A stretch of DNA of 64,000 nucleotides from the NCBI GenBank assembly GCA_036172245.1, contig JAYWIR010000001.1, positions 7,688,001 through 7,752,000 of the forward strand, given 5' to 3'. Shown piece after piece: positions 2,936-38,473 of this stretch. A program made the position numbers and the translations under genes. Below the pieces are notes generated by a model. The model made no database searches. It saw nothing but the letters and a program-made list of their open reading frames with translations, and was not told the origin of the DNA. This stretch comes from Raillietiella orientalis (taxonomy: Eukaryota). The number at the start of each line of letters is the position of its first letter. Within the stretch, counting starts at the first letter, position 1.

Positions 2936-3888
2936 GAATTGGATTTCGTAGAAAATCCAGTTGAACCTGAAGTAGCATAATGTGTTTACGCAAATGTGTA
3001 TTCTGGTGTTGAAGATGCAGAATAACGTCCATTTGATTGTTCATCATGTCATGTTGTGAAACTGGTCTAAAGGATTGTATAGTATCTATCTTATTTTTTT
3101 CTACCTGACTCCAATCTCTTGCTCAAACTCATTTCTTCCCTCACCATCAAACAAATCTGGCAGAAGATGAGCTTTGCGTACCTGGTGTATGAGCCCTAAC
3201 CCACATGATTGTGAGATGAAATTTCATTACTTAGATAATGAATGGAAACTGGGACTGTTGCTATGGCTTCCATACAGATGATTACACACATGAATACAGC
3301 AATGTTGCAATACTTGTCTTCACAATGATTCTGCATTGCAGTCTTAAAAATCAACAGCAGCACAGATCCTGGTAAAAATTGAAACACAGAAATGCATGCA
3401 TTATTATACCTGCCGAGAATATATCAAAAAATATTCTGTTATATTTTTGGGTTCTCCTATAAAAGCTTAAATAACCTTGCAACTTCAACATTTCATGAGC
3501 ATTCCTGAGGCCACAACCTAACATCTAACAAAACTGACAGTGAAGTAAGATTTAATGTTCCTTACCAGTAAAATTAACCATAGTGCAGAGTGCACATAGA
3601 CAATAATTGTTTCCAAAGGAATGCCAGATATAGATCTGTAATCCAAACTTGTCCATATTATTACAATCAATCCCATGCAAATCTGTAACAACATATTTTA
3701 ATTTCCAAAAGCATCACAGGACATCACAACTTCAAAGTTCAACATGCTATGCTTACGATAATTAGCTCTTGCACCCATAAAATTGCACAAATTATGGAGG
3801 TCGGTAGAATACTACTTGGAGTCCTGTTGGATATGACTGTTCCATGCACTAAGAATTCATTACTTATAGATCTACCTGCTGACTCCAT
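2919..3888 (-). CDS. TMEM192: TMEM192-family membrane protein, multi-exon
   Basis: Manual splicing on the minus strand gives MESAGRSISNEF...ILPTSIICAILWVQELII / ...ETIIVYVHSALWLILL / LRNAHEMLKLQGYLSFYRRTQKYNR...SAGSVLLL / ...IHQVRKAHLLPDLF...EIGVR / MMNNQMDVILHLQHQNTHLRKHIMLL...SIIA*. This parallels TMEM192 motifs as I recall them (LPTVII..LW, GYNLIYRST, SGNTVLLL, PDI, C-terminal coiled coil). Introns are short GT-AG. Confidence 0.85.
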
Positions 3889-7544: not shown

Positions 7545-8161
7545 GGTCCGCTCAGTACTCAATGTAGGGGTGGAAGTACCGCCTCATCTCCTGGAACCCG
7601 TCCAGCAGCATCCATAGATCCAGGCAGCGACTGCGCTACCTGGAGGGCTGCAGGACGGGGAGGACGTATTCGATCCAGAATTTCGCGTTGGCCTCGAACA
7701 CACCGAACTATGTTGCTGAAGAGCGACCTTTGGTCAATGGACAGGAACAGCTCATCCTTCTGCAGGTCGACCAGGCAGGACAGGAACAGATCTATTGTCA
7801 GGAGGACGTCGCGCAAGTACGTGTTCTCGGTCTTCATGAGCTCCCAGACAGAGATCTGGCACTGCGACGCCTGCTTGCCGGAGTCCCGGGACTCTGCTCC
7901 TCCCACGCAGTGACTCCACGCTTCCTCCAGGCAGACCACTTCTGCACATTCCCGGAGTTTCGCGGAGGTCATCACACTCTCGGGCAGCCCATATTCAGGT
8001 GGTCGATGAGGAACCCTGGCGGTCGGCAAAAACATCCGGTTCCACTTGGAGCCCTGCTTCTGTGAGCTCTTCGGCAAGGGCCTGCTGCACGGGACGGCAG
8101 GTTGTCATGGAGAGCTCGAAGGACACCATTCGGGAAGCCGGGTCGCCTTGTCGAGAGGACC
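7545..8161 (-). pseudogene. Frameshifted fragment of a PLEKHG5/6/7-like RhoGEF (start of DH domain)
   Basis: QCQISVWELMKTENTYLRDVLLTIDLFLSCLVDLQKDELFLSIDQRSLFSNI resembles the PLEKHG5 DH start (EAIWELLHTEASYIRKL...LFLCCLLNLQ...LFSNI), preceded by YGLPE and LEEAWS. The frame breaks on both sides. It is a GC-rich island in AT-rich flanks, and no other exons were found. Confidence 0.75.
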
Positions 8162-11100: not shown

Positions 11101-14100
11101 TCACGAATGGAAGAGGTAGTATCTCGCCAAGTTTTTGTTATGATTTATGAGTTTTTCATTTTATTCTTGAATAAAAATGAGACGGGTGCATTCGATGAAG
11201 AGAATACGGAATCTTTCATACATCATCAGATGTTCCTCTCGAAGTTCCTCTCAAACAATATTTAATTTAATAATTATAAGTTATAGTTAAATTCTGAATT
11301 CTGTATCGCATATTTTCTTGTATTAAATGCTAACTTGAACCACTGTTGACAGATTTCACATACACTGACTCAAATGTTAAGAGAATCGTTTAACAGTATC
11401 ATTAGTAGAAACGGTTATTGGACATTTCGAATTGATGAATTTCATATGATTATTACTGATTCATGCTGCAACCCATTCCATTAGTATGAATTTTTATTCC
11501 ACCAGAATTGTGCGAATGTTTGATATAGCTTAATTAGCAGACAACTGTCTCCAGAAATCGTATAGAAATTAGAACCAGCATTCATAATTTCAACAAAATT
11601 CACTTGAGCAAAAAGTGCGCAAAAAAAGCAACAGTAATCATTTACATATTCTTTTTCATAGTATCACATTAGAGGGGGAAATACTATGGTTAGAGGACAC
11701 TTTTAAAATTGGAAGCAATTAATGTCAGAATGGTTGCTTCGACCAAAGATCGGAAGCAATGATGCAATGTTAAAAATATCTTTTACGTGATGATTGCCAA
11801 TTATTCAATTGCAACTCAAAATAGTAAAGAGAAAAAAATATAGATATAAATATTTAAAAAAGACACGAGAACTTTCTATAGAGAGTAACCCTTGTTCAAG
11901 AAAATTGCAATTGATGTAAATGTGAGCACGAAAACAATCTCCTATTAAAGAAAGAAATGAAACTGTCAGCACATCAGCTAAAAGAACTGACATTTTTCAT
12001 TGATGTCAGAGTATAGATTTAAAGGAAAATCTACTTCTTAAAATGCCAATGGAATCAACACAAAGAATTTGGAGAGTAAGTTCATCGATTTCAACTTATT
12101 CACTGATACCTCCTTTAAACATCATACATTAATGATTAACAACTTTAATATTTTCAATGGGAGAATATTCGATATTTTCAAATATCCTCCAAATGATTTG
12201 GAAAAACAAGAAGAGAGTTTCCTTTACGAGGAATAACAATTTGCTGAATCATTTTAATTATTTTTAAACGTATCGATTTACAGTAAAACAAATTTCAATG
12301 GATTTCAATGACTAGATTCAGATTTGGAACATAGGAAAATTCATGAATCAGCATTTAACGATAGTAGTACAGAAATATGAGACAAAATAGGAGAGTTAGT
12401 GACACGAGAATTTGGAAAGCGAAGGCTATTTCTAATTAGGAAGGGAAGCCCTTCATGTGTTTTGCTCTCTTGTGGACCAAGTATGATCTACGTTATTCCT
12501 CTAGCGTGGATTTTCAGTAATAGCTTTCTGTTAAGAATGGACCTAACTTGTACTAAGTACAAACTAAGTGCAAAATAGTTTTTTTCTTACAAAACTTCTG
12601 GCATTCCATTCTGGTAACTCAATTCCTAACTGAAATTATAAGCTAGCACCTTTTAATGTAATGCAGTAAGGTAATAAAAGTGATCTGCTGCTTTGCTGTT
12701 TGAAGCAATATGAGCCAAGTGGAGTGTGTATTCACATGTAAATTAGGAATAAATGCTTTTTGACAGGGGGATGCTTGAGAAGATCAAGTGTTCCATACAT
12801 CCAGAGAATATATAAAGCTGCCCCACATGGCCTCATATTGTGAAAATGTCGCTGCACTTTTCCCTAAAATGCTACTATTGAAAGTTTCCCCAGGTCTACA
12901 GTAATCGATGTATTCAAAAATATTCCTTAGTGTTTAATTTATCAAGCAATGTGCTGGAGTAGAAGTAACAAAGGAACAAATGCAAGGAAGAAAAAAAGAA
13001 AAGGCTTGGGAAAAAAACTAATGTGGAATCCAGAGAGTTCAGTATTATGTATGAACAATATTTGATCCTGCATTATTCATTAAAAGAATTTGCCATACGC
13101 AGAGAACCTCAGCTTACTTCAGATATTACATTCGAATGAAAGAAGAAAAGCATCATTTTCATTGTTTCTGATTGTTCAATAGAAAAACAAAGACGTTCGG
13201 CTTTAAAATGAATACTTTTTTTTTTTTTTTTGAGTTCTTATTGATTACAGTGTTTCACATGCAGTGTAACAACATTCCTTCATTGAAATTTTACTTCAGT
13301 TCGCTTTCAACTCTCTTCATTGATTAGTGTTACATTTTTCATTTCAAAATCTTCAGGGGAAAGCTCAGTATGTTCATGACTCCTGAAAAATTAAAGATGA
13401 GACAACTTTTCATTATAAAATTTGACTACAATGGCGTTTTTATTAAAAAATTAGGTTCGAACTTTATGCTTGCAATGGAAGCGATTACGTGTTCAAACTT
13501 GTTGCTGTCTTAAATGTTACTCTTTCATACTTCAGGTTCATGAATTTCGACATAAATATCTCTTCGAGCTTTCCTAAATATCAAGCTTCGGAAGTTCCAT
13601 AATGGAAATGAAAACATATGACAATACAAACAAAAATTCATTAGTTATAAAGAATACGAATTACTTATAACTTTTTCAGAGGGACCTCATAAATTTCGAG
13701 ATTAAAATTTTAATATTGAAACAATAGCACAGATATTCAGAATCAAGTTCGTTGGAAGCATCTCATATTTCTTCTCCAGATTAACGCTGGGAGTGGACAA
13801 AAAGCTCATTAAGGAATGCATATGAAACATAGTTTAGAGTAAAATTTCTTCAATCTTTTGCCTTATTAGAAGTTTCATACAAGAAATTTTCGCAATACTA
13901 CAGATTTCTTAGAATAAACCTCAGGGAAAATTATTTTTGATTTTCAGGTTTTCTTTTTTATTTTAAAGCATTATTCTACTGAGTATAGACAAACCTTCTC
14001 CTTCTCCTTTGAAAAGAACTTTTTTCTACACAAGAGCATACTTGCCGTATTGTCCAAGAAACAGTCAACTGTATATATCGTGGAATTGCAAGTTATATGC

Positions 14101-15200
14101 TTAGGAATGATGATTTTCATGTTCTTTAATTTAATAGGCCCATTTTTCAATGGGAAATCGAATACACACAAAAACGAGAGCATCAGAGAAAGGCATCATA
14201 TTTCAAGGGTTTCCAGATTTGCCAAGGTTCGAAAAGACTTTCCCATTTACAAAAACAAAAAGGAGATCATAGGGTTTTGAAATGTGAGGAAATGCATATG
14301 CATATTCCAAGAAAAAAACTGAATTTGAGAGTGAATGCAGCTTATTGAGATTTAAGTAAGTAATGCTGCTTCCATACCCATGACTGCGTAGAAGAAAGAG
14401 AGAAGAGGAAGAGAAAGGAAAGAGAAGATTGGAATCATATCGGAACGTAATTTATTTCTAGTTTCCTGTGTTTGTTTTCTGACATACTAATACCAATTCA
14501 ATAAATCACATCCTAACTAAGCTATCATTATGGTTCTTAGACTTGAAAAAAGGGAACCTGTGAGACTTAATTTCATAGTGAACGGATGTTATCATTCAGT
14601 TTACACTCCAGTCTAATGAAAATAAGAAATGTACATTTCATTTCTAGCATCTCCAAAATTAATCAGAAAGTAACCTAAAGATTCTTTTAATACTAAAAGA
14701 AATTCGTGCTTTTTTTTTTCTGGGATATTTTTCACTTGCAATAGTGGAAAGCTGCGAGTACATTGTTTTTCCACAATGGTCAGATTATTGCATAGTCCTC
14801 AAATTCGCTATAAAATTATCTTATATTTCATGTTCCTGCAATAATATGTTTGTGAATGAATGAATAATAAAAGAAACTGTGTAAAGAATTCCTGTTGGAG
14901 GTTTATTTCATGAGAAGTGGGATATACGTTGGGATGCGGTATTTGAATAATGAAAAATTCGTACTTTCTAATTTGTATCTTTGAACGGGCGATCTTGTGA
15001 ATCGTTAATTTTTTTCTTTTCCTGGAAATTCCTTCTTGTATAATTTTTTCGGATAATGCCATAGGAATTTATGTTAGGCGAACACTTCCTTTGTAACTCT
15101 TACACAAACCTATAGAAATTATTGCTAAGACGATAGAGTTGGTATTCGCCAACGAAAGATCCCGCCGTTTTATGGATGCTGCAGGTGCTGACGGTTAATC

Positions 15201-18200
15201 ATGGGGTTAAGTGAAGATTTGTTTGAGGAATTTGATCAACTTGTGCTCTCTGTTGCTGACAACATATTAAAAAAGTGTGAGTAAAACTGATAATTTCGTG
15301 TAGCAAGGGGGTCCAAGTATGCTTTTCATATTTTCATCAGCGTCGTAAATTCTGTAATGAAATGCCAAGGTTCAAAAAAATGATAGCAAATTTATAAAAT
15401 CAAATGCTTAAAAAATAAAACGTGCAACAGTCATGCAGCATTTTTCCTCAGGTTATCGGCCTCATGGAATTTTGTTATTCTTTGCTTTATAAGGATAATT
15501 TTGACGTTGAATTTCATTTCTAACATGAAAATCCTAAAGAAAGTGTTTTTCCCGCTTAGAACTGTGCCTCCTCATTTCAAGCACGTTATTTCAAGTATTT
15601 TTCCCAGAAAACAATGCAAATTTTAAATTCTCGTTCTATATTTGTTTCCCGATTAATTTTGAAAATCATCGTCATCCATGCCTATTATAATTATAGTGTA
15701 GAAATGTTAATCAATGGAAAATTCCTTGCAACAGATTACATCATGTGTCCATTTTGGGAAAAACTTTATATGTATTAGTTTAATTTGTATGATGAATGTA
15801 TTAGTTGCACAATTTTATTTTTTATACAGGTATGAAAATTGCTTAAAAAGCAATGAAAAATCTACTGTTAGTGTGATTTAACTGGTTAAAGGCTAGTAGA
15901 ATTGTTTTGTTTGTTAACACTGGTGGAGAAACATAATATTGTTTGGAATGTGCCGACATTCCATGTGCACAAGTGTAGTGTCTAGTAGGTTGGGGAAATA
16001 AATGATTTAATTTTCTATTTTAAAAACAGTATGGTGTGATGTGTGTATGTTTTTTTGGGGGGGTTTTAAATTGTCATGTCGAGCCCAATGGAAGCTGTTT
16101 TGGACATTGCTTTTGACGGTTAACCACTGTATGCCGTAATAAAATAGTTAAAAATTGCCATTTTAAAAGCAAAGGTTGAATAATTGAAAATGAAAAGCAG
16201 ATTACCTATTGTGAATGCATGTGTTTAAACATTAATGGATTATTATCGAAAGACAGTATGGTCTTGTTGGAGCAACAATTAGGCATTGGGAATTGAATGG
16301 AATGTGTCCTTTTTTTAGTTTAGTGTTTTGCATTTGAATCCATGATTGCGTTTTTTTTTATATATATACTAATAACTCATATATGCGTACTATTTGAGTG
16401 TAAATTTGTACATTCCAGTAAAGAAATCTGTGAATTGTTTTGCGATAGTTTTTGAATGCATTTATCTGTGTATTTTTTTTGGGTTGTTCCAAATTTTTTC
16501 CCCCATCTGCAAAATTTTAAATTATATTTTTCAAAGTTTTTCTAATTGTTTTTAAGTCTGTTGTAATTATACTCGAGATTTAAATAATTTTTTACTGTTT
16601 TTGTTTGGGGTTTTCATTTCTGTTTCAAGTGCCTGTTGTTTTGCCAGTAAGTTGAGTCAGTGATTTTAGTTCAGAATTCTTGAAAAATTAAAAATATTTT
16701 TTTTTTTGGTATAAACAGCACATTAACTGATGTTTGATGTGAAGAGCATAACTTTTAAAAAACAGTACCTTGATTGATAAAATGAACTTGAAATTTCAAG
16801 CTATAAGAGTTACATTGTGGTATCATCAAATGTTGTATTGATTTGTGTATTGCTTTTTATATTACTACTGGTAATGACTTGTACCAATAATAATGATCAT
16901 GTGTGTTATGTTTAATTCGTGAACTTGGCTGTGTGATCTGAGCTGATTTCTTGTGCATTAGGTTGAAATGCTATTCAAATAGATGATGAAAGATAATTCA
17001 GGCATGTTATTCAAGATTGGATGAAGGCAGATCTTGACTTTTAAAATGGAATGTTGATAAAGTACAAAAATTTTTGTATAATTTAATCTTATTCACGCAC
17101 TTGAGAATTTACAACTTAGTGACAGTTATTGATAGTTATTGTGCTTATGAATTCAGGTATCAAATTAAATTAAAGAAAGTAGCAAGCTTAAAATACGTAA
17201 ATGTTGTGAATTTAATAAAAACTTGTTTTTTTTTTATTCAAAAATCATTTGTATATTTCAAGCAGAAGTGATTTATCATGGAATTCCACAGAAAATGCTT
17301 TGGCATTTAACAAAAGAAAACGATTTAGAAATCTTTCAAACAATAATGCATTTATTGAGAAATAGAGGCATAAGAGTTCTAGAAAATTTTTTGCATTGTT
17401 TTTGTTACTAAATTCACACTTTCTCTTGCAGGTTTTCACATCAGTTTTATTTGAGCTGTGTGTTATAAAAGCAAAAATGAGTATGCACTGAACTGGCATT
17501 AAAATATGTGGTTTAGCTGTGGTTACATGGATTGAAAAATTAAATGATAAAAGATTAATGTGCTGAAACAGCTTTTTCATTTTAAACTAAGTGTTCTAAA
17601 ATTTTTGAGGAAAATTAATCTGTCCAAAATTTGTGCTGCATTGGGTGTCATGTAGCAATGTCAAAAGGGAAATAGGGATTTTGGTAAAGAATTTAACACT
17701 TATTATAGTGAATTATTGTGATAGTTGTAATAGTAATTCTTGATTGTAATAGTATTCTTGATTTAGTGGGAAACGATTTTTTTTGTTTACAACAGAAAAT
17801 ATTTTTTTCCGATGTGATTTTATTCCTAGGTTGTTTGGTTAGTTTTTTTTATCTAAGGGAAGGATTACTTGTTGGAGAGGTTGCTTGGTTGTTTGAGCAA
17901 TTCTTAAGTGAGTCTGGAGTTCAGTTGGTAGGTGAGATTGATCAAAGTGATTATTGGCATTAAAATCAGTATTTGTGTAGCCATGTCAGTATATTCGTGT
18001 TATCATTCAATTTGAATTCTTGAGGAACAACTGTACCATGTTTACACCAAGGAAGCAAATGTTATAAAGAAGTGTAACATCTTTTAAAACACTGTGACTA
18101 ATATGAATACATTGCTATCTGAAGAAAACTTGTAAAATGAGAAATTAGGATTAAGTCAATGAAAGCTTGGTAAATGAGTTTGGTTTTTTATTATTTATTA

Positions 18201-21200
18201 CTGTGATTTCTAATTTCATGTTAGTACGAGAATATAATGCATAGTCAAAGAACTTGTGTGAGGAATCCCCAAAGTGAAACTTGGCATGACTATGCCTCTG
18301 AAATGTTTATGTATATCACCATGCATATCATGTTCGCCTTTACAATATCTGTAATTTCCATTTGGATGCCATCATATGCATTTTTTTGAGTGTGAAGCCT
18401 TGGGGTTTTTATGATTTGCACTTAATGCAGCAATAATTGCAAGAGACATTAAATATAGCTTACCTATAAATTACTTCGCTTTTTGAATTTTTTATTCTAT
18501 TTTTCAGTGATTGTGATTTCTTTGATTTGTCTTAAGTCATGACAAATTGCAACTCTTAAATGTACAGTTTCCTTATCCTGTTTGGAAACATTTTCTTAAA
18601 CTATAATCTTATTGCATGCATGTTATTTTGGGACTGCTTTATATTTTATCCTGTTTGCTTTTGTAAATTTGCATTGCTTCAAGTAATTCTATGCTCTTTA
18701 GAACTATGTACAACAACTGTGTATGTTCAAATCATATTCAGGTGAATTGTATCAAGGAAAACTAATAACGTGCAGCTTGCAGAATCGAATAAAGCTGCAG
18801 TGATGGTTGGTTCACGTCTGGTTTTGTGCTTAATCATATCAACTATTGAACCAGATGATGAATACTCGATTACAGTTGACATAAATTACATGCAGCAGTA
18901 CAAAATCAAAGATTGACAAGTGTAGAAAAGAACATTGTTACTTTCCAATTGAAGCAGTTGTTTGGGTAGCTATGATTTAACCCAATTCCACCCAAATTAT
19001 ATATATGTATATAATTTGGTGAATTTCCCAATTATAATTTCAACAAATGTGTGATGTAAAACACATTAAGTGTGCAAAAAACTGAGTGAACATGAACTAT
19101 TTTTAGTGAGTTGCAATTGGTTGGTTAATTGTGCACTGCTTGCTTTAAAAGTTGAAACACATGTCAATGGAAGATGAAATTTCTTGATTTGCAGTTCAGA
19201 GTCTAAGATCTAAGAGTCAATCGGTGGTTGGTTATGGAGAATAAGTTATATAATAGATGTTTCGGGGTAATTAAAAATGCTCTCTAATTTGTTTTTGACT
19301 GAAGATCCTTTGTTGAATCAATTTTTGACTTTGATGATTAATTTTATGAGTTTTATCCTGTGTTTGTACTAACCTACAAAAATGAGATACATTCTTACAG
19401 TAGAATATACAGAAATGTCTTTTGCAAAAACTTGTGCTCACATTTGATATACGGAACAACATAAGTAATAAAACAAGGAAATAAGTGTAGCAAGTTGACT
19501 TTCAAGTTTTGAGAGCCCTTTTTCATTGAATTCGAGACTTTTGAAGTCTTTGTTTGAATGTTCAATATTGTTTGGCTTTTTTTGTTTTTTGTCTTTTTAA
19601 TAATTCTATTTATGATTACATTTCTTGCTAGTATGAGATTTGTGAGTTGTTTATGTTTGTAATTATATCAATTTTAGGACTTTACATATACCATTTTTAC
19701 TTGTTCAGGAACCTAATGTAATTATAGTAAATAAAGCATTGCCTTTTAATTGATCATAAGTATGTATCAGTTTATCAGTGAATCCACCATAATTATGTTT
19801 TCTTGAAAATTATGAGTGTGCATATTCCATTTTTTGCACTATGGGTTTGTTTGAAGTTAGGGGTGAATGAAGAGGAGAATGACAAATCTGGGTTAGTGAT
19901 TCAAGAGAAAGGCAAGAGTTTGTATTTATAATATTTGGGATTAGCATAATTAGTATACAACACCTTACGTAATTATGTAAGGTGCCATAATTACTCATAC
20001 TTTATTACTCATTTATTAAATTCTAATCATGGCTTAAGTTCAAAGATTGAGAGTTTTGATAAGTTGATAATCCATCTCACTTTGAATGTCAAATAGGTTC
20101 AGCTTAGTTATACAAGCCTTTTGTTGGATGAATACTGCTAAATGCAATGAGACTTGATTGTGTATTATATATTATTTGTACTCTTGCTTATTCCAAACTC
20201 AAATTAAGTTTTGAAAACTATTTTGTTTTCATGTATAGTTTGCTTTTCCGTTTATGTTACCCTCACATTCTTGTTTGAGATCATGTTTAGAAACTGGATT
20301 ATTTTTATGCCAAAAATTCTTTGCAGCTTAATTATTCGATATGTAGAATGCAAGCATTTTGGGGCAGTTTTATCATGTGTTAGAGCTGAACATCGATAAC
20401 TTATTAATTGTCATACCAAATCTAAAAGAGCATGTGTAGAAACTCAGACTGATTTGAATTCAAATTTACTTACATCAGAAATTCAATACTTGGCTGTTTT
20501 TGGATTTCTATAAACAAATTCCAGGTTTGTTGCAAATTTTGAAGAACTATCGACTTAAGTCTGATCATCATCATGGAAATCTTTTGTAGTTGAAGAATAA
20601 AAAAAAAAATCATTCTGCAATTAGGTAATGCTACAGGACTCTTCTTTTCATTTGAAGTAATGATTTGCAAGCAAAGATTCAAATGAGCAAGTAAATTTAT
20701 AAAATTCTTTACACATACGCCTTAAATGGTTTTGTGACTTAGTATGCAGTACACTTTGCTTTAATAAACTGTTTAATTTTTATCTTTAAGAGATGAATGT
20801 ATCTCCCCACACCTCACAGATCCATATGTTATTCAGTAATGAAAACATCATTATGGGTTCAGTATTTATGAAAGTATTAGTTACTGCACATCAAAACTGT
20901 AGATGCACAATAGGAAATCGAAAATCTTGAAATTTCACTGGTGTATGTTATGCACCTTTCAAGTAATTTTTTTTTTTTTAAAAAAAAAAAAAAACTTTAT
21001 TGTGAATTGTTTAAATATGCTATTTTCACATAGTGCTCCAATAAAAATATATAGTTGTTGCTGTATGAGGATAAATATGGTGGGTGGGTTTCAAAAGGTG
21101 CATGCAATTCACGTTTTGCAAATGCATTTTTATGACCAGAATGCATTTCAATGTTCTTATCTTGCATTTTTTTTATAAGCTATGCAATGTCAGTTAAGTG

Positions 21201-24200
21201 GCAATTGTGGTTGCTACCATTTTGAGGGGCTAACTACTATTTCAGTTCTTTCAACCATAAGAGAGTTGATTTAGAGTCTCCATTTGGGAGTGTTGGAAAG
21301 TTGTGGTTTATAACTGCAGCGCTATTAAAATATTACTTTTAGCACTAGGCATGTGGAAATTCTTCATTCCTCTTTGTGTGTTACATGAAAACTAAAAGAT
21401 TAATATACAGTTCAGCATATTATGGCATCTTGTGGCATTCAAAGTTAACGTTTAATAAGGATCCAATGAGTTTCACTTATTTAAGCTTATGATTTTTTAG
21501 ATTTTTGCTGTTAATGTTAAAGACCATTTCATTTGATTGATGGTTTTTAAAGCTCTGTCAATTTCGGATTCCCACGTTAATTTTAGTATTCTTGAAATGC
21601 GAATTGCTATCAAGGTTGTCCTTTTGTATCTTAAAATCCTGTGTACTTACATGGCTGGTTTCCATACTTCCTGACATATAAAGATAAGGAAATAGCATGT
21701 ATATTTCATTTCAGTGGTAGCATTTTGTGAAGATTATCACCTATCAGCTGAAGAATTGGTTCATACTTGGGTTAGTTATTCCTTGAAGAAATTCAATAGC
21801 ATTTGTGTACCAACTGGGGATGTCATTCATGATTTTGAAAAGGATGAATTAAGAAAGCACATCCGAACTTGCAACTCTGCGTCTCTTAAGGGTGATAATA
21901 AAGTGAAAGTCTATAATACATCATCATTACATGAATTGTATCCTTTTGAAATTGTTGGATCAAAAATTTGTGCATTTATCCTGACAAACTTGTGATTGCA
22001 CGAAATTCATTAATGTCATTTACCACAGTGTTTGAAAACCAAGATTTTCATTTTCTTAATTTGAGGTTGTTTTGTAAAGTTGTCGGGCATTTCGAGTGGC
22101 ACCATTTTTTCTCTGTACTTGTGATTTATTTGGTACCTAAGTGGAAAAATTATTCCAATCAGAAAATCAAGTAGACAAACATCGGATCCATATGTACTTG
22201 GGATGCATGCATACTGAACTTCTTCAGATTCGTTCTTTCCGGTTTACATATTCAATTTTTGTAATGTCTCAGTCAAATTTCATTTGCTTTTCCTTTCCAA
22301 TAAAGTGAAGTTTTGCGATTTGTTGCTTTGAGGATTTTGTAAACCCCGCTGTTCGGAGAGTGTGACAGACACCTACATGCATATTTGATGGTTCGTGTGT
22401 GTGTAGACGTGAGAAGCCCGTTTGGTAAGCGTTTTTGATCCTGTTGCTTCTGTACGTGCCGCCCCCGAAGAGGTCCCCCCCCCCCTTTTTTTTTTATTTC
22501 TCAGTGAGCACCCATATCTTATTGCACTGTTGAATTTCATTTAATGAAAATTGCGTCAATGTGTGGCATTTCGTACGCTGGTAGAAAGCTCCCATTCCAC
22601 GAAATTTTTTTTTTTTTTCTTTTTTTTTTCCCCCCTCAGCATTTCTGAATCGCGTCTCACCTCCTCCCGCCATCACATGAGGTGCCTCGCATTCTTTCAC
22701 ATTCTATCTCCTTCTATTTCGTAGCTTTACACGTGCACCTCAGTATGAAAGGTACGCGCCTGCGTGTGTTCATTATTTCGGTTTTGTCGGCATGAAATGA
22801 AATTTCGTTTTTCGGGGGGGGGGGGGGGCAGCGTTTTCCTGTTCCTTGCGAGGAATTCTGGTAGTTGGCTGTTTCTCCGGGTGAACTGTCGGGAGTCCAG
22901 TGTCCCGGGGACACTTTGCACACGGACCGTCTCACAGCAGTTCAGTTCCCCTTTGCGATTCACTTCAGCGGGATAATTTGTTTGTTTGGCACGTTGGTTT
23001 TTCCGGTGTTTCAATCGGCGATTCTTCTGTAAATATCTCGTGGAACACCGAACGAGTGTGTTTCCGGTAACCATCGTTTTATCTTCTACAAGGTGGTCGT
23101 CTGTATTGCGAGCCTCGCATATTTTATAAACAAAGCACTTCTTAGCTGGTGAATTTTGTTCAGTTCCCGCAGTGTTTTTTTTTTTTGGTCCAACATATGT
23201 AGGTGTGCACTTAGGATAGGGTGCAGCATCAACAAACACTGATCGGAGCAGACGATCCGAGCCATCTTTTTGTTTTCATCACAAACACGGAGTACACATT
23301 GCAGGCAGGGCGTGATTTGCTCCTGTGGTCAGTGTTTCCCCCTTTTCCTGCGGCATTGAAATAAAATGTGCTCTTTTAAGTGAAAGTCCCTTCGAAGAAC
23401 GTTTTCGTGTCCGTTTCTCGAAGAGTGCTTTGCTCGGTGTTTGCAGGAGGAGCCGAAGCACTGAATAGCATTTCCGTCCATTATTCCTCGAATTATTATT
23501 TTTCGGTTTCGTTTTCCATATTATTTACACACAAAAGGTGTTTCACTGAACGTGCCCCCCGGTGTTTTTTTCCTTTTTCGAAAACACTTGAAAAGGTTTG
23601 AAATTTTCAACTGTGTCGCCTGCAGTTGCACCACAAGTATTTCGCGCGCGTGTGTGTGTTTCGGATGTTTCCGTCGTTCCTCTGCTTCTTTGGACTTTTG
23701 TCTCGATTTGTTTTTTTTTTTCTTTCTTTTCTGTTTTGTTCTGGTAGGAAGGGTTTTCCTCCAACCGTCAGGCGTTTTGTACGGCGAACTTTGTTTTTGA
23801 GTAAAGCAAACATTCCCAGTAGACGTCGGTGGCGAGCAGTCGGAGCTCCTTTGTGCGACCACGCACGGCAGAAACGAAGCAAATGAATTTTCTTTTCCTC
23901 CAACGTGTGCCCCCCCCCCCCCCCCCGACCACATGCCATGCTGTTGTGTGTGTGTGTTTTGCCTCCGACCTGCCGCCGGAGTGCGTCCGTGCCCCTGTGG
24001 TTCCTTCCTTCCTCCGGCTGCCGTTGCCAGGATCTCTTATCGGTCAGGTTGATTTCCTAGTCGTTGCGATGGCTTTTTTTTTTTTTTTTTCATGTTACTC
24101 CAAGCGCGCATAGGTGTTATTTTGGTATTTTTATCGATATACGCATGCGCATATCTGCGGAGTTTGTGTATATATATCACACACACACGTAAATGTGTAG

Positions 24201-26856
24201 AGAAGGGATCCTTCTAGTTTTTTGTTGGGGGGGGGGGGCGTAGATGAATTTTATTCCGGCAACATGCATTCGAATTCCTTTTTTTTTTTTTTTTTTTTTC
24301 CCTCATTTTTGCGGGAAAGTTTTCGTATCGTCGGGGGTATTTTTATTCCCCCCCCCCTCCACATAAGTGGACATTATGTAAAATCATATCACTGGTCGGA
24401 ACTCGGTTGAGTTTCGATGCATTGGAAACTGTTCTTCGGTTCCCCCCCTCCCCCCTGATGCTTGACGCATCTCATTCACACATGAAGACTCGGGGAAGAA
24501 AAAAAAGGATTGTGCTTACTGCAATCGTATATGAATAATCATCACTTTGCAATTTGGAAAAAATGCTCGGAAGAACTCGAAGATAAAGATGGAGGGGGGG
24601 GGGGGCGAATTTTCCTTTCGTCCATATTCGGCGATCACATTGAAGTTTTACGTGTGGCCATCTTGTTTTATCTTAAAAAAGAAAATGAAACCCATTTCAG
24701 CGGATCTGATTTTCCACTTTGGATCTTCGAGGTTCGGCGGGAATGCTCGAAGGTAAGTTGGCAAGGAAAAATGGGAGAAACGGGAAAGTGCGCGAAACGG
24801 AACCGGGAAAGTGTGACGTACACACTGTCCAAAAGCGCAGCAACTTTTTTTTCTTTCTTTTCTTTTCTTTTCTTTTCTTTTCTTTTCTTTTTTTCCTTTT
24901 CTTCTTCTTTTTCTTCTTCTTCCTGCGATTTTCACAGTTTCGTGCTGTTTCGGTGGGATCCGAGGAGGAAAAAAAAAATGATTGCAAATGGACTTTCGGT
25001 TTTGCATTGAGATTACTTTGGCATTTGGCAATTTTTGTACTTTTCGGCGTCATCGCTCGCCTATATAAAGGGAAATTAGTAATCATTTTGAGCAATCGCA
25101 AATAAGTGATTCCAGCAAAACAGCGGGGAAAAAAAATAAAAAAAAAAAGAAAGAAAGAAATGAAAAGAAAAGAAAAGAAGGAAGGAAAAAATGCGTTACA
25201 TTTCAAAAACCTTGAAAAGTGAGTTGAAAGCATCCTTACCGTTGAAAAAAGAAGAAAACTCACGCTGCATCAGTGTGCGGCAGACTGCCTGCTAGTAATG
25301 ATGAAAGGATAAATCAAAAGTTGTTTTTGGTAAATTGTAGGAAAATTGTATCACATTTCAGCAGTCTGATGGTGGCGGGAAGGGAAGAAGAAGGAAGCAG
25401 AAAAGAAAGAAAGAAAAGAAAAAAAAAAAATCCTGAATTCAAGTCTGTAAAGGCAACTGGAAAATTCCACTCGTCCTCCTCCTCCTCCTCTCTCTCTCTC
25501 CCCCCCCCCCTCCGATTTTTATTCTCACGCAAACCGTCGGTTGTATTTCTCTCCCTTGGCACATCTTTCAATATTATGTAAAATTTTCGACAGATTGAGA
25601 AAGCGAATTGGTGAGGGGGGGAGGGGAGGGGAGGGGTAGCTGCCTCTGATTTTACAAGCAGCAACCAAAGCAGCGTCTTTCAAGACTGCGTGTACCCCTG
25701 CATCCATTGGGGGGGGGGGGGAAGGGATGCAAAAATCAATTTGATTTTTCGGCCCAAAAAAAAAAAAAATATGCAGGGGAAAAGAAAAAAAATCCCCCCC
25801 CTCCGTCTTCGCCCCCCCCCCCTTTTAACCGGCAGCGTTTTCCCGAAGTTGCCGTAAGCGCACTGTAAACAAGCAGCGGCGTTTTCGGCCGGGAAATATT
25901 TCGACCTGCATTGCCGCGTGCACTTACGCCAAGTCCGACGTCGTCGCGCACGGAGAGAGTGGAGTGCGCGACACCTTCCCAGCACATCACGAATGGCCAG
26001 TGCGTGCATGTGTGTGCATCATAATGTGTGTGTGTGTGTGTGTGTGTGTGTGGAAAGCTCCGTCGCCGCCGTGAGTGAGTGAGTGAGTGAATCTCGGGAG
26101 CATCCGAGGAGCGGTACACGCCGTTTTCCCTCGTTTTCCTCGTACCGTGCAATGCATTTAGAAGCACGTGATGCCCCCATGCGTCTTATTGTGTGCATAC
26201 TAATATGGGCTCCAACAGGCTTTCCACCACCCGATTGTACATGTGCAGTGTCAACGAGGTCTCGCAACGAGCAGCGCTTCCTCGTCGTCTAAGTGTTTCC
26301 AGCAGTCACGCCGAAAATGAATTCCGTGTACACGTGCGTAAATAGATGTGTGTGTATGGAATGTGCGTTTTGCTTTCTTTAACTGTGTGTGTGTGTGTGC
26401 TGCCTGCCTGCCTGCCTGCCTGTGGTCGTCGGTAGCTGCGTCCGAGGGAACCGAGGCAAAAAAAGGAAAAAAAAAAAAAAAAAAAAGGAAAAAGAAAGAA
26501 AGAAAGAAAGGAAGGAAGGAAGGAAGAAGAAGAAGAAGAAGAAAAAAAAAAAAAACCCGAAGCCGGTGGAACGCGTCAAACATTCGTTTCTCGTTATGGA
26601 ATTTTAAAATGTCAGTTATGGAAAATGATTGCTTTGTATGGGATAGGGAATACAGTAAAATTTGAGCCACGTAAATGAATCGGATTCCCGAATTCCTTAA
26701 CTTTGCTTAGATACGGAGGAGACAGCCTGCTAGAAGCATATGGACACACGCATACCTCCATACATGTGAGTATTCGATGCTGGATGTGTCACACTTTTAA
26801 ACTTTATTATTTTTTTTATCTTATCGTTAGCCTTTTTTTTTTTTTTTTTTCTTTCC

Positions 26857-26893
<37 letters not shown>

Positions 26894-29693
26894 TTCTTTC
26901 CCTTTTGTCGCATCGTAATCATTGTAAAGAAGAAGTGTGCTGTGAGTGTGTACGGACTTTTTCGTAATTTCTTTTTCCCGCTGAAGCAAGATTTAACATT
27001 GTATGAAACATCAAGGAATTTAATTTTGCCCAGTTTGTGGCTTGATGTGGAAGAAGCCGATCGAACGCCTTTCGCAGCCTCGGGCTGTGACTAAGGATAA
27101 TTGCACATTCGCTTGTCAAGGCCAGCGAGAACGGTTTGGAGTGTTATTTCACCTCTGGTTGCTAGAAGCTTGCAAGACGCTACTCGGTTCTTTCGGTGCT
27201 CGAAGTGGTTTTCGCGGATAGCACGGGTTTTTTTATTCGCCCCTCCCCTCCGCCCCCCCATATCTCTCTCTCTCCTTCCCCTCCCCCCTCCCCTCCCTCC
27301 CTCCCCCCCCCCCACGAGTTGTGCAAACGTTTTGAAATGGAATGCTTTTCTCTTTCGCTTTTCGTATTTGTATAATTCCGTATGCATTATGTTTATTCCT
27401 CCATGTGCCACTCCCCATTGCCTGTACCATGAAATCGAGCACCGATTTCATGCTGGATCAGTAGGTGGAAAGCATGTCTTTCATTTGGTGGGTATCGATC
27501 TTGTGTACGTTCTTTTAGTGAATCGTGACTAGATCCATACTCATCAAAGGAGATACAACCAAGGTTCCAGATAGTATCGGCTTTCCCGCGTGCTATTCGT
27601 TTGGCTTGACGGAATTTCGCTAGGAAAAGTTAACCTTGAAATTGGCCAATAACGCGTCTCGATTAGTGCTTTGAATTCCTTTCAATGGAGTTGAGGAGGA
27701 CGTTGGCACCGTGTTCGCGGTGAATGCTGCTGCTGCTGCTTCAGACAGAGGAAAGTGTGCATTCTGCATTTAGTAACTGTCCGAGGGAGTAGTTTTTTTC
27801 TTCTTTTCTTTTCTTTTCTTTTTTTTTTCTCTTTATTTCTTTATTTCCTTCTCCCCCGTCCGTCCGTCCCCCTCCCCTCCCCCGATCTAAATAAGTGTTT
27901 TATTGGAGCACGCACGAGATTTGTGAACAGCATCAACGAACCCGGGTTAGTACGATGAGTGTGATCTATGTCGTGTGTTTTTAATTGTATCATGACTAGA
28001 CCTTCACTCATCGAATTGCCCAGGGTGCATCCTTCCGAATGTGCTTGGGAACGGAAACACCGCGTTTCTTGGGGGTCATTTCAGAATTAAGCATTGTATT
28101 CTTTTAGAAGATTTCCGACATACAGAATGATAGGAATGCATCTCCTGTTGTGGTGCCGTCTGTTTTTGTGCAGGAAATGTAAGTTATCTGCCTTCCCCCC
28201 CCCCTTTATTTTAAAAAATAAATAAATAAATGAACGAAATGCTCCAACTCAGGGTCATGCCTTCAAAAAATTTCGCCGAAAGGTGTGATTCCCACGTTGC
28301 TGTTTACTGTTCCAACAATTGCAGCTCAGAGTGGAATCCTTGCAGCTCTGAGTGCCCGAAGATCTCTTTCCCCGAACTTTACAAACCGCTCAAAAGCAGG
28401 TAAAAAAGGGCACCAAGTAAGCAGTGCATTATCTTATTTATTTTCATTAGGTATCAATATATGTTTGAACAGTATGAAGAGAAAGTGGAAACTCTTAAAA
28501 GTCTTGTATTTCAAATGCCATTGCAGAGTGCTTTTTCAAAAAATGGAGAATCAGTCGAGGTAAGTTTGTTTCCGTTGGCATTGTTTTATGTGAAGGGAAA
28601 AAGGAAGGATGGGTAGGTCGAATCTCAAATGGTGGCAAACAAGAGAAATTGTCGGTGGACAACGTGCACCTGGAATCTCCTTTGGATGGCTCCACTTTTC
28701 CATTGGATTTACGGAATCTTCCTTGTTTTTCCCTGTTTCCTGGTCAGCTGGTAGCCGTGTCTGGAATTCAGTTACCTGGAGGGAAAATCCTCGTCGATGA
28801 CTTGCTAACTGGAGTCTTACCTCCTACAGCACCATCGTTTTCCCTGCCACATCACAGCAGTGGTTAGTAATCAAGTTGCAAATTTACAATGTGAGAATAT
28901 TCATAGATCCACTTCAGATTGTGGTAGCAGCCGGACCTTTTACTTTGGCGGACAATTTACTTTATGAGCCACTTCACGAGTTGCTCAAGTGGATCGTAGA
29001 GTATCATCCTCAAGTTTGCTTTTTAGTTGGTCCAATAGTTGATGTGAGGCATAAGGCTATCCAACTAGGCCAGCTTGCGCAAACTTTTGATGATCTTTGG
29101 GAGCAACAACTGAGTGCCATTTGTAGAGCAGCTGATGCAAGCAACACTCATTTCATCCTTGTGCCCTCCTTTCATGATGCTCATCATGATTGTGTGTATC
29201 CCTGTGCCCCATATTCATTGCCATTGGTACATCCTATGCTGCATCTCGTGTCAAATCCATCACTTATGTGCCTTGGTTCACTTGTTGTCGCCGTAACTTC
29301 CACGGAGATTTTGCTAGATCTCAAAAAAGAAGAGTTGCACATGTAAGTTCTTGGCCAACTTAACTGTTAACGCCTGTTGTTGCCAGTGGTGCAGTAGGTG
29401 ATGTCTTCTCACGACTGGCACACCACCTTCTCATGCAGCAGTCTTTCTACCCCATGCATCCTGTAGCAGCTGATGTGCCTATACATTATAAGCAGTTTGC
29501 AAGTAGTTGCAGTATACCTGTACGCCCACATCTGCTAATACTGCCATCAAGTTTCCACTATTTTGTTCGTCAAGTAGATGATGTATTTGTGCTTAATCCT
29601 GGACATCTGACTCTTGGGAGCAAGTCGGGGTTTTATTGTCGGCTGCATATTGATGATGCTCTCAATATTAATGCACACATAGTCAAGATTTGA
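15201..29693 (+). CDS. POLA2: DNA polymerase alpha subunit B (POLA2), multi-exon with three large 5' introns
   Basis: Exon 1 15201-15276 (MGLSEDLFEEFDQLVLSVADNILKK), exon 2 21715-21937 (LVAFCEDYHLSAEELV...), exon 3 26711-26765 (YGGDSLLEAYG), then YQYMFEQ (~28451), SLFPGQLVAVSG, IVVAAGPFTLADNLLYEPL, VGPIVD, HFILVPSFHDAHH, QQSFYPMHP, LNPGHLT and stop at 29693. Phases of exons 1-3 join in frame. Exon structure between 26766 and 28450 is unresolved. Confidence 0.93.
21938..26710 (+). other. U12-type (minor spliceosome) GT-AG intron, POLA2 intron 2
   Basis: 5' splice site GTATCCTTTT at 21938. Branch site TTCCTTAAC at 26693-26701, followed by TTTGCTTAG ending at 26710. The phase-2 junction TT|A restores the frame (HEL-YGGD). 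Confidence 0.9.
22400..28250. repeat. Region dense in homopolymer runs (poly-T/A/G/C) and microsatellites ((GT)n, (TTTTC)n, (GCCT)n, (GAA)n, (GAGT)n)
   Basis: Visible directly, e.g. (GT)n ~26025-26051, (GCCT)n ~26400-26421, T/C tracts at 24845-24920 and 26833-26900. Lies within POLA2 introns 2-3. Confidence 0.9.
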
Positions 29694-33543: not shown

Positions 33544-36175
33544 TCAAATCGTTCTTTCCAGGACTGTATCAGTCCTTGAATGGTACTCGGGTACTCAATA
33601 AGGCGCACGGTACCATTTTCTAAAAAAGATATTCTCATAATTCTTAACAAACTAGTCTTACCAAGTTTAGTATTGCTTTGAACGAACATTTTTCTGGGTA
33701 TTTTCCGATCTAGCACAATATTTCTCCACTGTAAGGCTGCCTCATCAACATGGCTGTATTTATCAAACATTTGTTTGGCACGGGCAATATTGCCCGTAGA
33801 CTTATATACCTAGCCAAACTGTAATGATTTCTGTGTTTGGTACTCACTTGAAGTTTTTGAAGAAATGTTCTTAGGGCAGGCTTTCCAACAGAAAGAATCT
33901 TTTTGTAATCAACATGCAGCAGTAAATCCGGTTTTCCATCATCTCCAGTACACTCTTCAATTTTCACAAAATCTTGTTCTGCCTCCATAAGAACTCTTAG
34001 GATAACATAGCGGGCCTGGCAATGAGCTTGCAACCAATTATTGTAATCTGCACTATAGACTTCTAAAGCACACAGTCCATTCCATGCCATTTGAAGCCAT
34101 GCAACATTAACTACCCTCTCTGCTTGTGGACCTGTGTGACCAAAAATCCTAAACAACACATGAGCTCCTAAGTTTGAAAAACAACTAACTCTAAAACTTT
34201 AGGAAGATGACACAAGTGCAAGGCTACACATTCTGCCCTGCACTCCTCATAGGCTGAAGCAATTGATCCAAAGCGAGCATTGTAGTTTTCTCCAGGCTCA
34301 TACCAATCACCAACCTAACAGACCCTGCAACTACCAGCATGAGTTTTTGAATGCCCTTACCAGTTCTCCTGTTTCCAAATCCTTTACTGTCTTCCGGTCA
34401 AAGTTAAATGTATTGTTAGGATATTGGCAAAATAACTTGCCAGTGCCATGGCCTAATAATTCATGTAGTCCCACACACACCTATAGTGGAAGTGGAAAAT
34501 GAAATGAAGATGGCAACGCATTATTTACCTCAAAGGATGGAACCCGTAGCTCATCTAACATTTCTCTATCTTCTGGGAGCAGAAATGGGCGGACAATTTT
34601 TTCACTGTGACTGCTGATAACATTTCCTAGGTTCACATTCTTGAAGCCTTCATTTTGACGTATCTCATCATCTAGCACAGCATTTAGAAATCTAGAAGTA
34701 GCCAGATTTTTACTAACAATTAGGTATGTTAATGCCAGCAGGAATACTACTTCCTGCAAAAGTCAACACATCTAAACTTGTAAAATCTGGTCTCAAAAAA
34801 CTGTCTTTTTCATAATCAGATGGCCATGGTAATTCCTTTAGTAGTTCTGGGGCATGTTCAACCAAGGCTTCAAATTTGGCTGACATGGTTCGATTCACCA
34901 CTGCAACAAAACCTTCAAATTCCCCTCGCATTTTCATAGGGTCTCGATACACCTCAATGAAGCCAATGTAACTGGTACTAGTTGCAGAATGAACACAAAA
35001 TTCACAACTAACCATTCTACTGCAGGGCCTCTATCTTGAATCCAATAGCGAGAGCCTTGTTTGTGAGAATCTATAGAGCCATTTTCAAAACAGTCTATGT
35101 AACACTCTAGCATCTGCTTTTGGATGTTCTTAGCTACAAAATCCTGAAAATCAAGCCCACTTTTTTAGTGCTGAATCACAAATTTACGTTACCTCAGCTT
35201 CCTTCAGGGATTCCACCACCTTATTCAACAATGGACTGAAATCACCTCGTACAATAGCAAACTTCTTTTCACTCTGAAATACAAATTCATTTTTGGCCAT
35301 GGATGCCAATCGAAGTTCGAGTATCCCATTAGGTCTTTTGCATGCCCGAGTATTGTATGCTTCAATGCGATTCCTTAGTAGAAAGTCTTTCATTAATTTG
35401 GCATCTTCATGTGTGTAATTTGCAGAAAAATAAGTGGTGATTCCCTGTAGTTTGTACTTATCATATTATTCTGAATAAATTTAGGTCTGACTGTTTCTAT
35501 GAATCCAAGCTGTTGTTCCCTTTCTTCTAAAGAGTACATTTTTTGGTGGCAGTGTTCCCATAAATACTCTATAATCTTAGCCTCTTTCTTATTTGCTGCA
35601 CTGTGATGGATTAATGCTTCAAATTTGGATTCTTCTAGATTAGGAATGAATTTGGAATCCCCAAAAGACTTGTAATTCCCCATGTTTGTAAATATGCCAC
35701 AAGCATATACCAAGAATGCCTACAAATGAATTTTAAAATGCACTAGTAAATGTTTCTGATTTGCCTGGAACTCATCCTCAGAAAGCCCTGCTTCAAAAGC
35801 ATTATTGGCAAGTTCACTGAAGTCACAGGCATTTACTATTTTACGGAGTAATGTAAAAATAATAGGTGATTCTGGAGATGTCTATAAAGAAAGTCTTATG
35901 TGTTAAATTGATATTCATACCAACTTAACACCAACCTGAAATAAAACTATCAGACCTCCGTACCATGATGCACGACTCAAGAAATGTGCGTACTTTTTGT
36001 CTTGCTCTGCTAAATCATTAAAAGCTTTGCATTCTAAGGCAGTAATTGGCTGTGAATTCGGATAAACAAATCGTGATGTGTCCTCCATTTTAGAAGACTT
36101 GCTAGCTAATGTAACCTTGCCTAATGCGGATATTAACTTGTTCCTGCATAAACGTTCTAAAAACCTATTAATCAT
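33456..36175 (-). CDS. DPP3: Dipeptidyl peptidase 3 (M49 metallopeptidase), multi-exon
   Basis: Zinc motif [15 protein letters not shown] (~34430-34475) and AYEECRAE (~34230-34255). Also [62 protein letters not shown] and [15 protein letters not shown]. Start is either 36175 or the in-frame ATG at 36088. Confidence 0.97.
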
Positions 36176-38473
36176 TTATGTAAGCAAATTCGATTCATAG
36201 AATTTCATTGCAATCACTAGAAAAACATAATTCAATGCCGAATTCACTGAATACATATAATTCAATGCCTGATTGCTTTCATTAATCGAAATATCTAATC
36301 AAAAATAAATCCATACAATTCTATTTTATAATCCAATGTTTACTTGGATTTTATGGAATAAACGTGCATACGTTTGCCATATTATAAAACATAATCACAT
36401 TATGTTTAACTCGACCTAATGGTCCGGTCATACGATGTCACACCGCAAAGCACCGACAAAAGTTGGGTTTCAGGCATAATATACACTTGTGAATTTTTCC
36501 ATTTTGCCGTGCCAGGTTCCGACGCGGCTTAATGATCAAAAAGCTACCTATAAACATCCCCGTTACACAACATGGAGGAAAGTTACCAAAATGACAACAC
36601 TGATTGTGGATTGGGGATATTAGATAGTGGTTTAGCTTTGTGCCACGATTGCATACTTCATGTATATATGCCAAAAACGAAGGGAATATGGATATCAGTA
36701 AATAAGGAATCTGTATAACAAATACATTTATGTTGTAGATACGCGTATCTGGGCTGGCAGGTTTGATCATAGTCATAATCAAAGAAGATGATTGTAACTA
36801 TTTGATCTTTGATTATGATTGTAGATTACAATTTTGCCTGACTAAAAATATTGTGAATTTCAGGAGACAAATTAGTCAGCAGGGTAGAATAATGGTTCAA
36901 AATTAATCGAGTGTTATCAGATTCCATTGTACCAATTAGTTGCATTGTTTGTAAGGGCACCGAGAACTCTCTTTGAAACAATTTCTGATTCCAATCCGTT
37001 CAAACAAATACAGCATAGCTTCACTGAATGTTCAGATCTAGTGATTCGAAGACTGTGACGTAAAGCATACAGATAAAAAATAATTTTTGAACCTCCAGGA
37101 ATTCCATATCACTTTGCGACTTTACTGGAAATAATTAAAACAAAAAGCTAAAAATCAAGTACTTTTCAATGAACTAATTGTCTATACTTTATAGATTGCC
37201 CTAATTTTATATTTCCAAATCATATGAAAATAAGATTGAAGAACTTTCATTCCCATTGTGTTTTTTCGACCTCAAACATTCTTCAACACATCATTAAGTT
37301 GGTTTGGCGTGCAGTGTCAAAAGCCGCTGTCAGAGTTCAATTAGCTTTTAATTTTTTTCGGTTCATGAACTTGTTCCAAAATCTTTTCTGAATTCTGAAT
37401 CCAAATGAGAAATTATATTCTATCTGAAATACAAAGCAGTTCTTTTTGCAAATAGGAGATTATAAAATACTTTTGCTTTCCATTTTTTGCATCAATTATT
37501 TTCTTGTGTTTTTCTCCGACATTACCAGTGCTCTTTCCACCAGTGAAGGATATTTCGTACACTTCTAAAGTTGTACTTTGGACAACTGTCCTCTACAAGA
37601 GGAAACCCAAACCTCACAAATGAAGAAATAGAAGCACTGAAAGACACTCGTAGAATTGTTTAAAATCTACCTACACAGATTTTGCTTCGTTTATTTTCTT
37701 TGGAACGTTCATATCATTATCCACTAAACTGTAACTTTGTTTTAATGATTTTTCCATGGTAAAATCTTAACCAACATTGATATCAAATGTCGTTCTACAA
37801 ATGAACGCAGTAGGAGAATATTAACTGGTATCCCTACATACCGACCAAGTTGTGATTACACAAAAGATGTCGCGTAAGTATCAGCAGCTACTAACACGAT
37901 TCTTGATTTGAAATTGAGTTTTCTCATAGTGTGTAAGGACAATGAATAAACAAAATAATATTTGTAGCAATCATGTGATAGGCCAGTCATAAGTTCATGT
38001 TTAGTGCTAGTAACCCTGTAAAATGAAATTATATTTGTCGGTCTTGATGAAAGGTCTTCGCGAAGAATGTACACATTCAACTGTACGGAGATAACCGTAT
38101 AATGTAAAAGTATATGTATTGCTTTGGTTTCAAGTGAATAAATAATCCGTATACACACTGCCAGTTCTGCCCCAACTTTCAGATATATTTGCTAGTGCTT
38201 TGCAAAGTTTCAAGCTTGATGTCTAGTTGATGAATTTGATAAAGTGGTCTGTACTGTTGTAAATTAATCAGTATTCTTGTGCATTCGTTTTAATGCCGAA
38301 TTCAATTTGCTGCCAGATAACTAGAACTGATTCCTTTTGTGACGCATTATTTGCAAAAATCGTTGCATTTGCTTATAAGTTCTTTTTTGTATGTTGCTCT
38401 TTTTAAGATACATGAGAGTCATTGTGATTTTTGCAACGTAACATATCTTTAAAGATTGGTTTTCTATCCGTAG

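Follow-up and report, generated by a model that had tools for sequence, protein, structure and literature searches.

A POLA2 gene occupies positions 15201 to 29693 on the forward strand of a 64,000-nucleotide stretch of contig JAYWIR010000001.1 (assembly GCA_036172245.1, positions 7,688,001 to 7,752,000; this whole stretch is referred to here as the window, and its coordinates are used throughout). The gene was modeled with 10 exons encoding a product of 546 amino acids without internal stops. Exon 1 (15201 to 15276, 76 nt, starting with ATG and ending in phase 1) is the best match in the window to a hidden Markov model (HMM) of homologues (E = 1.9e-6, versus 0.42 for the runner-up), and a CpG observed/expected ratio of ∼1.07 at 14600 to 15500 is compatible with a POLA2 promoter. 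Exon 2 (21715 to 21937), which encodes the Pol_alpha_B_N domain (PF08418, E = 1.8e-9), follows a U2-type GT-AG intron of 6,438 nt (intron 1, 15277 to 21714; 30% GC, CpG ratio 0.36, single copy) that is strongly skewed toward G and T and within which nothing was found; its length is unexplained. Two features between exons 2 and 4 are the subject of this report, namely, a 4,773-nt U12-type intron (intron 2, 21938 to 26710) and, beyond the 55-nt exon 3 (26711 to 26765, phase 2 to 0, with a conserved D-x-L-x-x-Y motif), a tandem pair of mir-279-family hairpins within intron 3 (26766 to 28107, U2 type, 1,342 nt). Exons 4 to 10 (28108 to 29693) are separated by six introns of ∼42 to 74 nt; the acceptor of exon 8 is a weak and uncertain choice, and intron 7 (28560 to 28616) has no good in-frame acceptor, its in-frame AG being purine rich; the assembly may contain a homopolymer error at this place.

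Intron 2 is homopolymer rich, has phase 2, and is present in a single copy in the genome, simple-repeat matches aside. The 5′ splice site GTATCCTTT (21938 to 21947) matches the RTATCCTT consensus, and the branch site TTCCTTAAC (26693 to 26701) lies 9 nt before the exon, with the intron ending in TAG at 26710. The features that define the U12 class, a TTCCTTRAC branch sequence near the 3′ splice site and no long polypyrimidine tract, are both found here. TTCCTTAAC occurs once in the window and is the only U12-like branch site within 21938 to 28300; chance would supply 0.07 copies of the donor and 0.015 of the branch site plus YAG per 15 kb of the forward strand (200 Markov shuffles). Joining 21937 to 26711 produces the in-frame junction SLHEL|YGGDSLLEAY, which is collinear with homologues. 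Inclusion of exon 3 gains ∼8 bits on the N-terminal HMM of homologues relative to read-through or skipping, and read-through meets a stop after 58 nt of the intron.

The machinery required for such an intron is encoded in the same 210-Mb genome, where U6atac (91.3 bits), U12 (98.7 bits), U11 (80.9 bits), and U4atac (69.5 bits) small nuclear RNAs (snRNAs) were all detected above the Rfam cutoffs, along with a short PDCD7/59K fragment marginally above its own. Donor positions +4 to +10 are complementary to the 5′ box of the genome's own U6atac, positions +5 to +10 are complementary to the 5′ end of its U11, and the branch site pairs with its U12 with one bulged A. Given the consensus donor and branch site, the homologue-aligned, in-frame junction, and four minor snRNAs with matching pairing sequences, this sequence evidence confirms the 4,773-nt GT-AG U12 intron as real. 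An initial annotation, made from the letters of the window alone, had already named the gene as POLA2, which the matches to Pfam PF08418, PF22062, and PF04042 and to PDB entries bear out; its U12 donor at 21938, branch site 9 nt before the exon, in-frame 55-nt exon, and retained minor spliceosome likewise all stand. So far as the literature search reached, these matches are genomic evidence of a complete set of minor snRNAs in a probable pentastomid (see below); no paper on pentastomid genomes was among those listed by that search. Several copies of these snRNAs exceed the cutoffs (12 for U6atac and 3 for U4atac), many of them resembling retrocopies, and one contig (C19) has a U6atac copy ∼600 nt from a weak U4atac copy.

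Short U12 introns also occur in this genome. A genome-wide pattern that could detect only short, perfect U12 introns gave five matches against one in the control, representing four distinct donors, three of which belong to in-frame introns, of 44 nt in an RFC5-like gene, 56 nt in a USP gene, and 46 nt in a formin gene; these families carry minor introns in human. The fourth (L033) starts with TT and is not an intron. U12 introns of 44 to 56 nt show that this class can match its neighbors in shortness and, together with the still longer U2-type intron 1, indicate that length and U12 type are unconnected. The estimate in the initial annotation that intron 2 is ∼100 times longer than neighboring introns holds against 24 short introns (median, 47 nt) of the 3′ part of POLA2 and the GPR89-like and TADA2B-like genes of the window but not against the adjacent introns 1 (6,438 nt) and 3 (1,342 nt).

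That POLA2 contains a U12 intron is itself largely known and ordinary. A minor intron has been catalogued in POLA2 of human (1,103 nt) and mouse (157 nt), with the exon ending in GCT before GTATCCTTT (MIDB; available text of Olthof et al. 2019, PMC6717393). The intron described here shares with them the GT-AG U12 class and the donor GTATCCTTT and apparently also phase 2 within the same E-L dipeptide but differs in its length of 4,773 nt. Human SIQEL aligns with SLHEL, and the exon end GCT is compatible with a phase 2 intron in the Leu of human E98-L99. The comparison of intron position with orthologues that had been suggested, made from the catalogued exon end and the protein alignment, is compatible with human POLA2 in phase and in the E-L dipeptide. 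Most likely, the U12 intron lies at the same codon as the human and mouse minor intron, with which the alignment is strongly consistent although it is not proof. In human POLA2, this is presumably intron 3. A search for POLA2 in the supplements of PMC7507305, PMC7367187, and PMC3291851 and in the text of PMC11347168 gave no result. The initial annotation had treated the intron as surprising and had contrasted it with compact-intron lineages that lost the minor spliceosome; the catalogued vertebrate intron does not support the former, and the animal is a probable pancrustacean, not a member of a lineage known for such loss. Judging from these comparisons, intron 2 is almost certainly an ancestral, vertically inherited POLA2 intron that would be removed by the animal's intact minor spliceosome. 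Derivation of introns 1 and 2 from a transposon or repeat was rejected, only simple-repeat matches being found, as was a device looping out exon 3, the flanking purine/pyrimidine inverted repeats being low-complexity sequence.

The initial annotation overlooked the mir-279 pair in intron 3. Hairpin 1 (27473 to 27559, forward strand; predicted mature 3p from 27526) matches Rfam family RF00754 with 55.9 bits (E = 1.5e-9) and hairpin 2 (27940 to 28026, forward strand; predicted mature 3p from 27993) with 36.2 bits (E = 3e-4); neither reaches the gathering score of 56, hairpin 1 falling short by 0.1 bit. Each folds into a single stable hairpin whose 3′ arm contains the GACUAGA seed, with fold z-scores of about −5.1 and none of 200 shuffles equally stable. 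Hairpin 2 has diverged outside the seed; its 3′ end, compared by eye, resembles miR-279 copies and not the miR-996 rows of Supplementary Figure 4, and its orthology to mir-996 is not shown by this sequence comparison. The tandem pair sits in the POLA2 intron that follows the D-x-L-x-x-Y exon, as does the mir-279/996 cluster of insects. Two further candidates within the U12 intron, at 22875 to 22955 (z = −1.4) and 25828 to 25915 (z = −2.5), were rejected as weak hairpins with low Rfam scores. A third mir-279 copy, accompanied by mir-2944, was found on another contig (C29; locus L037, 4 to 231, reverse strand) between kinesin-gene exons of the same strand, in a gene whose 939-residue downstream frame appears CENP-E-like by eye. 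This mir-279/mir-2944 pair may have a relationship with the mir-286/309 cluster of insects.

In several respects, the locus reproduces published mir-279 systems. According to the available text of Weaver et al. (2007, PMC2394756), honeybee mir-279 lies in intron 3 of POLA2, and that of Mohammed et al. (2014, PMC4238352) has mir-279 entering POLA2 within insects (aphid), with a duplication in Hymenoptera, and gives it as missing from chordates and from the POLA2 introns of tick and mite (Ixodes and Tetranychus); the text of its Supplementary Figure 3 has no Daphnia row. The POLA2 host, the shared strand, and the tandem GACUAGA-seed pair with a diverged second copy are all features of the insect cluster, whereas the present animal is a probable pentastomid, Daphnia-like and springtail-like contigs share the arrangement, and the spacer upstream of the hairpins extends past exon 3 and reaches a U12 intron.

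To place the locus among relatives, metagenomes were scanned for the mature miR-279 motif, which yielded 115 stretches, of which 113 loci were read. In 9 of the 113, POLA2 exons follow at a short distance downstream in the same orientation; where 4 kb or more of downstream sequence was available (22 loci), POLA2 was present in 6 and absent from 16, mir-279 also having copies outside POLA2. The nine comprise four loci of one termite-like lineage, one hymenopteran-like locus (L060), two Daphnia-like loci (L080, with 81% identity over 42 amino acids, and L056), one springtail-like locus (L051, whose adjacent DPP3 is 73 to 74% identical to that of Orchesella), and one unplaced locus (L087). The intronic position in the Daphnia-like pair follows from the next exon beginning near residue 113, the upstream exons lying beyond the contig. 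A metagenome search with Hyalella POLA2 recovered no related locus. With the probable pentastomid, Daphnia-like, and springtail-like loci as predicted, mir-279 in POLA2 dates to early Pancrustacea at least, against the published insect origin. In the literature search, PMC4238352 alone joined mir-279 with POLA2, and no crustacean report of this linkage appeared among the papers listed; miRBase and MirGeneDB lay outside that search and may already place Daphnia mir-279 there.

The animal was placed by its mitochondrial genes. The best COX1 matches are three pentastomids (73 to 74%), followed by insects (68 to 71%); in a tree of 20 rows, in which the other rows are insects only, the sequence joins the pentastomids with 100/100 support on a long branch, and the diagnostic columns divide into 7 pentastomid and 5 insect. 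A clade I nematode such as Trichinella, considered at first, was rejected on the COX1 result. Pentastomida belong to Oligostraca. On the mitochondrial contig, cox2 is directly followed by trnD, and the loss of trnK at that place is, we assume, an ichthyostracan trait. On this contig, trnL also separates cox1 from cox2, which is the pancrustacean state according to the available text of PMC10355681. Mitochondrial tRNAs were called by ARAGORN at a low threshold that overcalls, and only calls fitting the gaps between genes were used. Judging from these sequences, the animal is very probably a noninsect pancrustacean and, with somewhat less assurance, probably a pentastomid. The contig of the window also bears a COX1 copy, at 88.8% identity; the assembly contains 54 COX1 matches, many of them nuclear copies. 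On the mitochondrial contig (C282; L038, 1692 to 2313), 108 nt around trnL are duplicated, and the interval from cox1 to cox2 contains ∼430 nt of additional sequence.

The DNA upstream of the hairpins stands out in composition. The CpG observed/expected ratio is 1.03 in the U12 intron and 1.0 in intron 3, compared with 0.35 to 0.47 in neighboring housekeeping genes (0.35 to 0.40), intron 1, and the 3′ exons (0.47). CpG/GpC counts are 35/158 at 16400 to 21937, 305/293 at 21938 to 28107, and 34/83 at 28108 to 29693 (Fisher P = 1.4e-16 and 1.2e-5), and the edges of the CpG-rich interval are sharp, near 22100 and 28100. Gene-body methylation with unmethylated islands is established arthropod biology, and a DNMT1-type gene is present in the genome; given that gene, the natural reading of the CpG step is an unmethylated island in a methylated gene body. 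The mir-279 cluster on C29 provides an internal control: its DNA is CpG poor (0.29), as expected for a host-driven cluster. Within the CpG-rich interval, TATATAAA (25062 to 25069, forward strand), 2.4 kb before the first hairpin, is a candidate TATA box for an independent pri-mir-279. In Drosophila, the CR31044 pri-mir-279/996 has its own TATA promoter ∼1 kb upstream, with the start mapped by cap analysis of gene expression (available text of Sun et al. 2015, PMC4456407). The present locus resembles the fly locus described there in having a seed-sharing hairpin pair behind a TATATAAA box but differs in that the fly pair is intergenic, whereas here the pair is intronic and the box is 2.4 kb upstream and only predicted. 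These features incline us to the view, somewhat better than evenly balanced, that the U12 intron would hold the mir-279 promoter and enhancers.

Spacing in relatives is another line of evidence. Counted from the upstream donor, the first mature microRNA begins after 5,589 nt here (from the U12 donor), 5,621 nt in the springtail-like locus, and 6,477 nt in the hymenopteran-like locus; exon 3 here lies only 761 nt before the first microRNA. In the springtail-like locus, the spacer lies entirely in intron 3, and exon 3 (82 nt, same phases) is preceded by a U2-like acceptor; in the hymenopteran-like locus, the intron corresponding to the U12 intron is lost and the microRNAs are kept. A spacer of 5.6 to 6.5 kb in two loci without a U12 intron thus indicates that the spacer follows the microRNA and not the intron class. 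In the hymenopteran-like locus, a sequence resembling a U12 branch site (3052 to 3072) stands ahead of exon 2, yet the donor of intron 1 is ordinary.

Together, these observations suggest the following arrangement. POLA2 would be transcribed from ∼15.1 kb, ∼10 kb upstream of the pri-miRNA start, and would have to splice the U12 intron, with U11 and U6atac reading the donor and U12 reading the branch site. A nested mir-279 gene would use the 5.5 kb upstream of its hairpins, mostly the U12 intron, as its own unmethylated promoter/enhancer region, and its pri-miRNA would start inside the U12 intron and cross the branch site, exon 3, and the intron 3 donor before being cut by Drosha. Under this model, intron 2 is long because POLA2 hosts a nested mir-279 gene, not because it is of the minor type. 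We hold with moderate confidence that POLA2 is transcribed from ∼15.1 kb with a minor-spliced intron 2 that doubles as promoter/enhancer DNA of a nested mir-279 gene. A more tentative extension, to which we would give rather less than an even chance, is that mir-279 entered POLA2 and was duplicated in the pancrustacean ancestor, well before insects arose, and that in this pentastomid-like lineage its promoter and enhancers lie in the minor intron, giving a transcript that carries an orphan U12 branch site and 3′ splice site along with a coding exon and whose production may be linked with minor splicing. If the model is correct, a developmental microRNA transcript begins within the U12 intron of an essential replication gene, and a testable explanation follows for the great length that some minor introns keep in compact genomes, namely, that they may hold the regulatory DNA of nested genes. 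The mir-279/996 locus is essential in flies, and its published history is affected by the locus described here. The intron being known, the contribution lies in the nested mir-279 locus, the promoter that it likely has in the U12 intron, and an earlier date for the pairing.

Several observations weigh against this model. Intron 1 is longer still, CpG poor, and unexplained, which shows that such length is possible without a promoter, and CpG-rich DNA also occurs elsewhere in the window (42000 to 64000, ratio 0.89). Apart from the hairpins, no conserved noncoding block was found between the region and the nine related loci, and a termite-like locus (L096) is CpG poor at its hairpins (0.18 to 0.37, in a comparison that excludes the upstream DNA). 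TATATAAA is expected 0.028 times in 21938 to 28107 but was picked after inspection. The spacing comparison covers three lineages only; in the springtail-like locus, exon 3 is called from a weak HMM match (E = 0.15) together with its phases, motif, and splice sites, and the 4.3 kb before it yielded no exon 2, so that intron 2 may be long there too. Splicing, methylation state, the internal promoter, and expression are all predictions from sequence.

Some of these points would be expected if the U12 intron were real but its length neutral or general to 5′ introns, with the microRNAs released from POLA2 pre-mRNA and the CpG- and homopolymer-rich DNA a product of mutational drift. The 6.4-kb intron 1 without a CpG island and the lack of conserved elements in the region fit this alternative, and minor introns often exceed major ones in compact insect genomes (available text of PMC10639083). 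It fits poorly with the abrupt change in CpG content on either side of 21938 to 28107, the 5.6- to 6.5-kb spacer in two relatives that lack a U12 signal there, the contrasting CpG-poor cluster on C29, and the promoter that Drosophila mir-279/996 is reported to possess, so that we regard neutral length as unlikely, if still deserving weight. Selection could instead have favored slow U12 splicing and intron length as a link between POLA2 output and mir-279, through intron retention, intronic polyadenylation, or competition with Drosha. Consistent with such coupling, U6atac knockdown lowers human POLA2 protein with retention of the minor intron (available text of bioRxiv 2021.12.09.471104), read-through here would give an early stop, the intron has been retained with perfect signals, and poly(A) signals occur within it (AATAAA at 22299, 23360, and 25135). 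However, three AATAAA in 6 kb are unremarkable, and the microRNAs stay in POLA2 both where the springtail-like locus has no U12 signal and where the hymenopteran-like locus has lost the intron, so that the pairing does not need a U12 intron; coupling as the cause of the length appears improbable. Least probable, to the point of being nearly negligible, is a wrong gene model in which the 4.8 kb represent an assembly artifact, an inserted element, hidden exons, or another gene. The sharp difference in composition from the flanks and the many homopolymers could be read in this way, but the interval is single copy with only simple-repeat matches, its stop-to-stop frames are low complexity in appearance, its best Rfam match (E = 0.014) falls on low-complexity DNA, and the splice junction is collinear with homologues, with exon phases matching those of the springtail-like locus.

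Searches with single exons gave no match, either in PDB with exon 2 alone or in a homologue search using one POLA2 exon. POLA2 is adjoined by a convergent DPP3 gene (33600 to 36200, reverse strand). In the springtail-like locus, DPP3 (13300 to 16900) directly follows POLA2 on the same strand, and a database model from Strigamia fuses DPP3 with POLA2; DPP3-POLA2 is, on this gene order, an old mandibulate gene neighborhood. The window further contains GPR89-like (1327 to 2900) and TADA2B-like (38467 to 40420) genes, both on the forward strand, named by eye from their translations and with introns of 41 to 164 nt, and a 181-residue frame at 7559 to 8104 (reverse strand) that by eye resembles the start of a RhoGEF (DH) domain. 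At 42000 to 64000, the composition changes abruptly to 55 to 66% GC. Within this part, a U2 snRNA match of 46.5 bits at 48618 to 48776 (forward strand), U2-like only in its 5′ part, is probably a truncated pseudogene, and a weak zf-RVT match at 44386 to 45129 (E = 8e-4) suggests decayed long interspersed nuclear element sequence.

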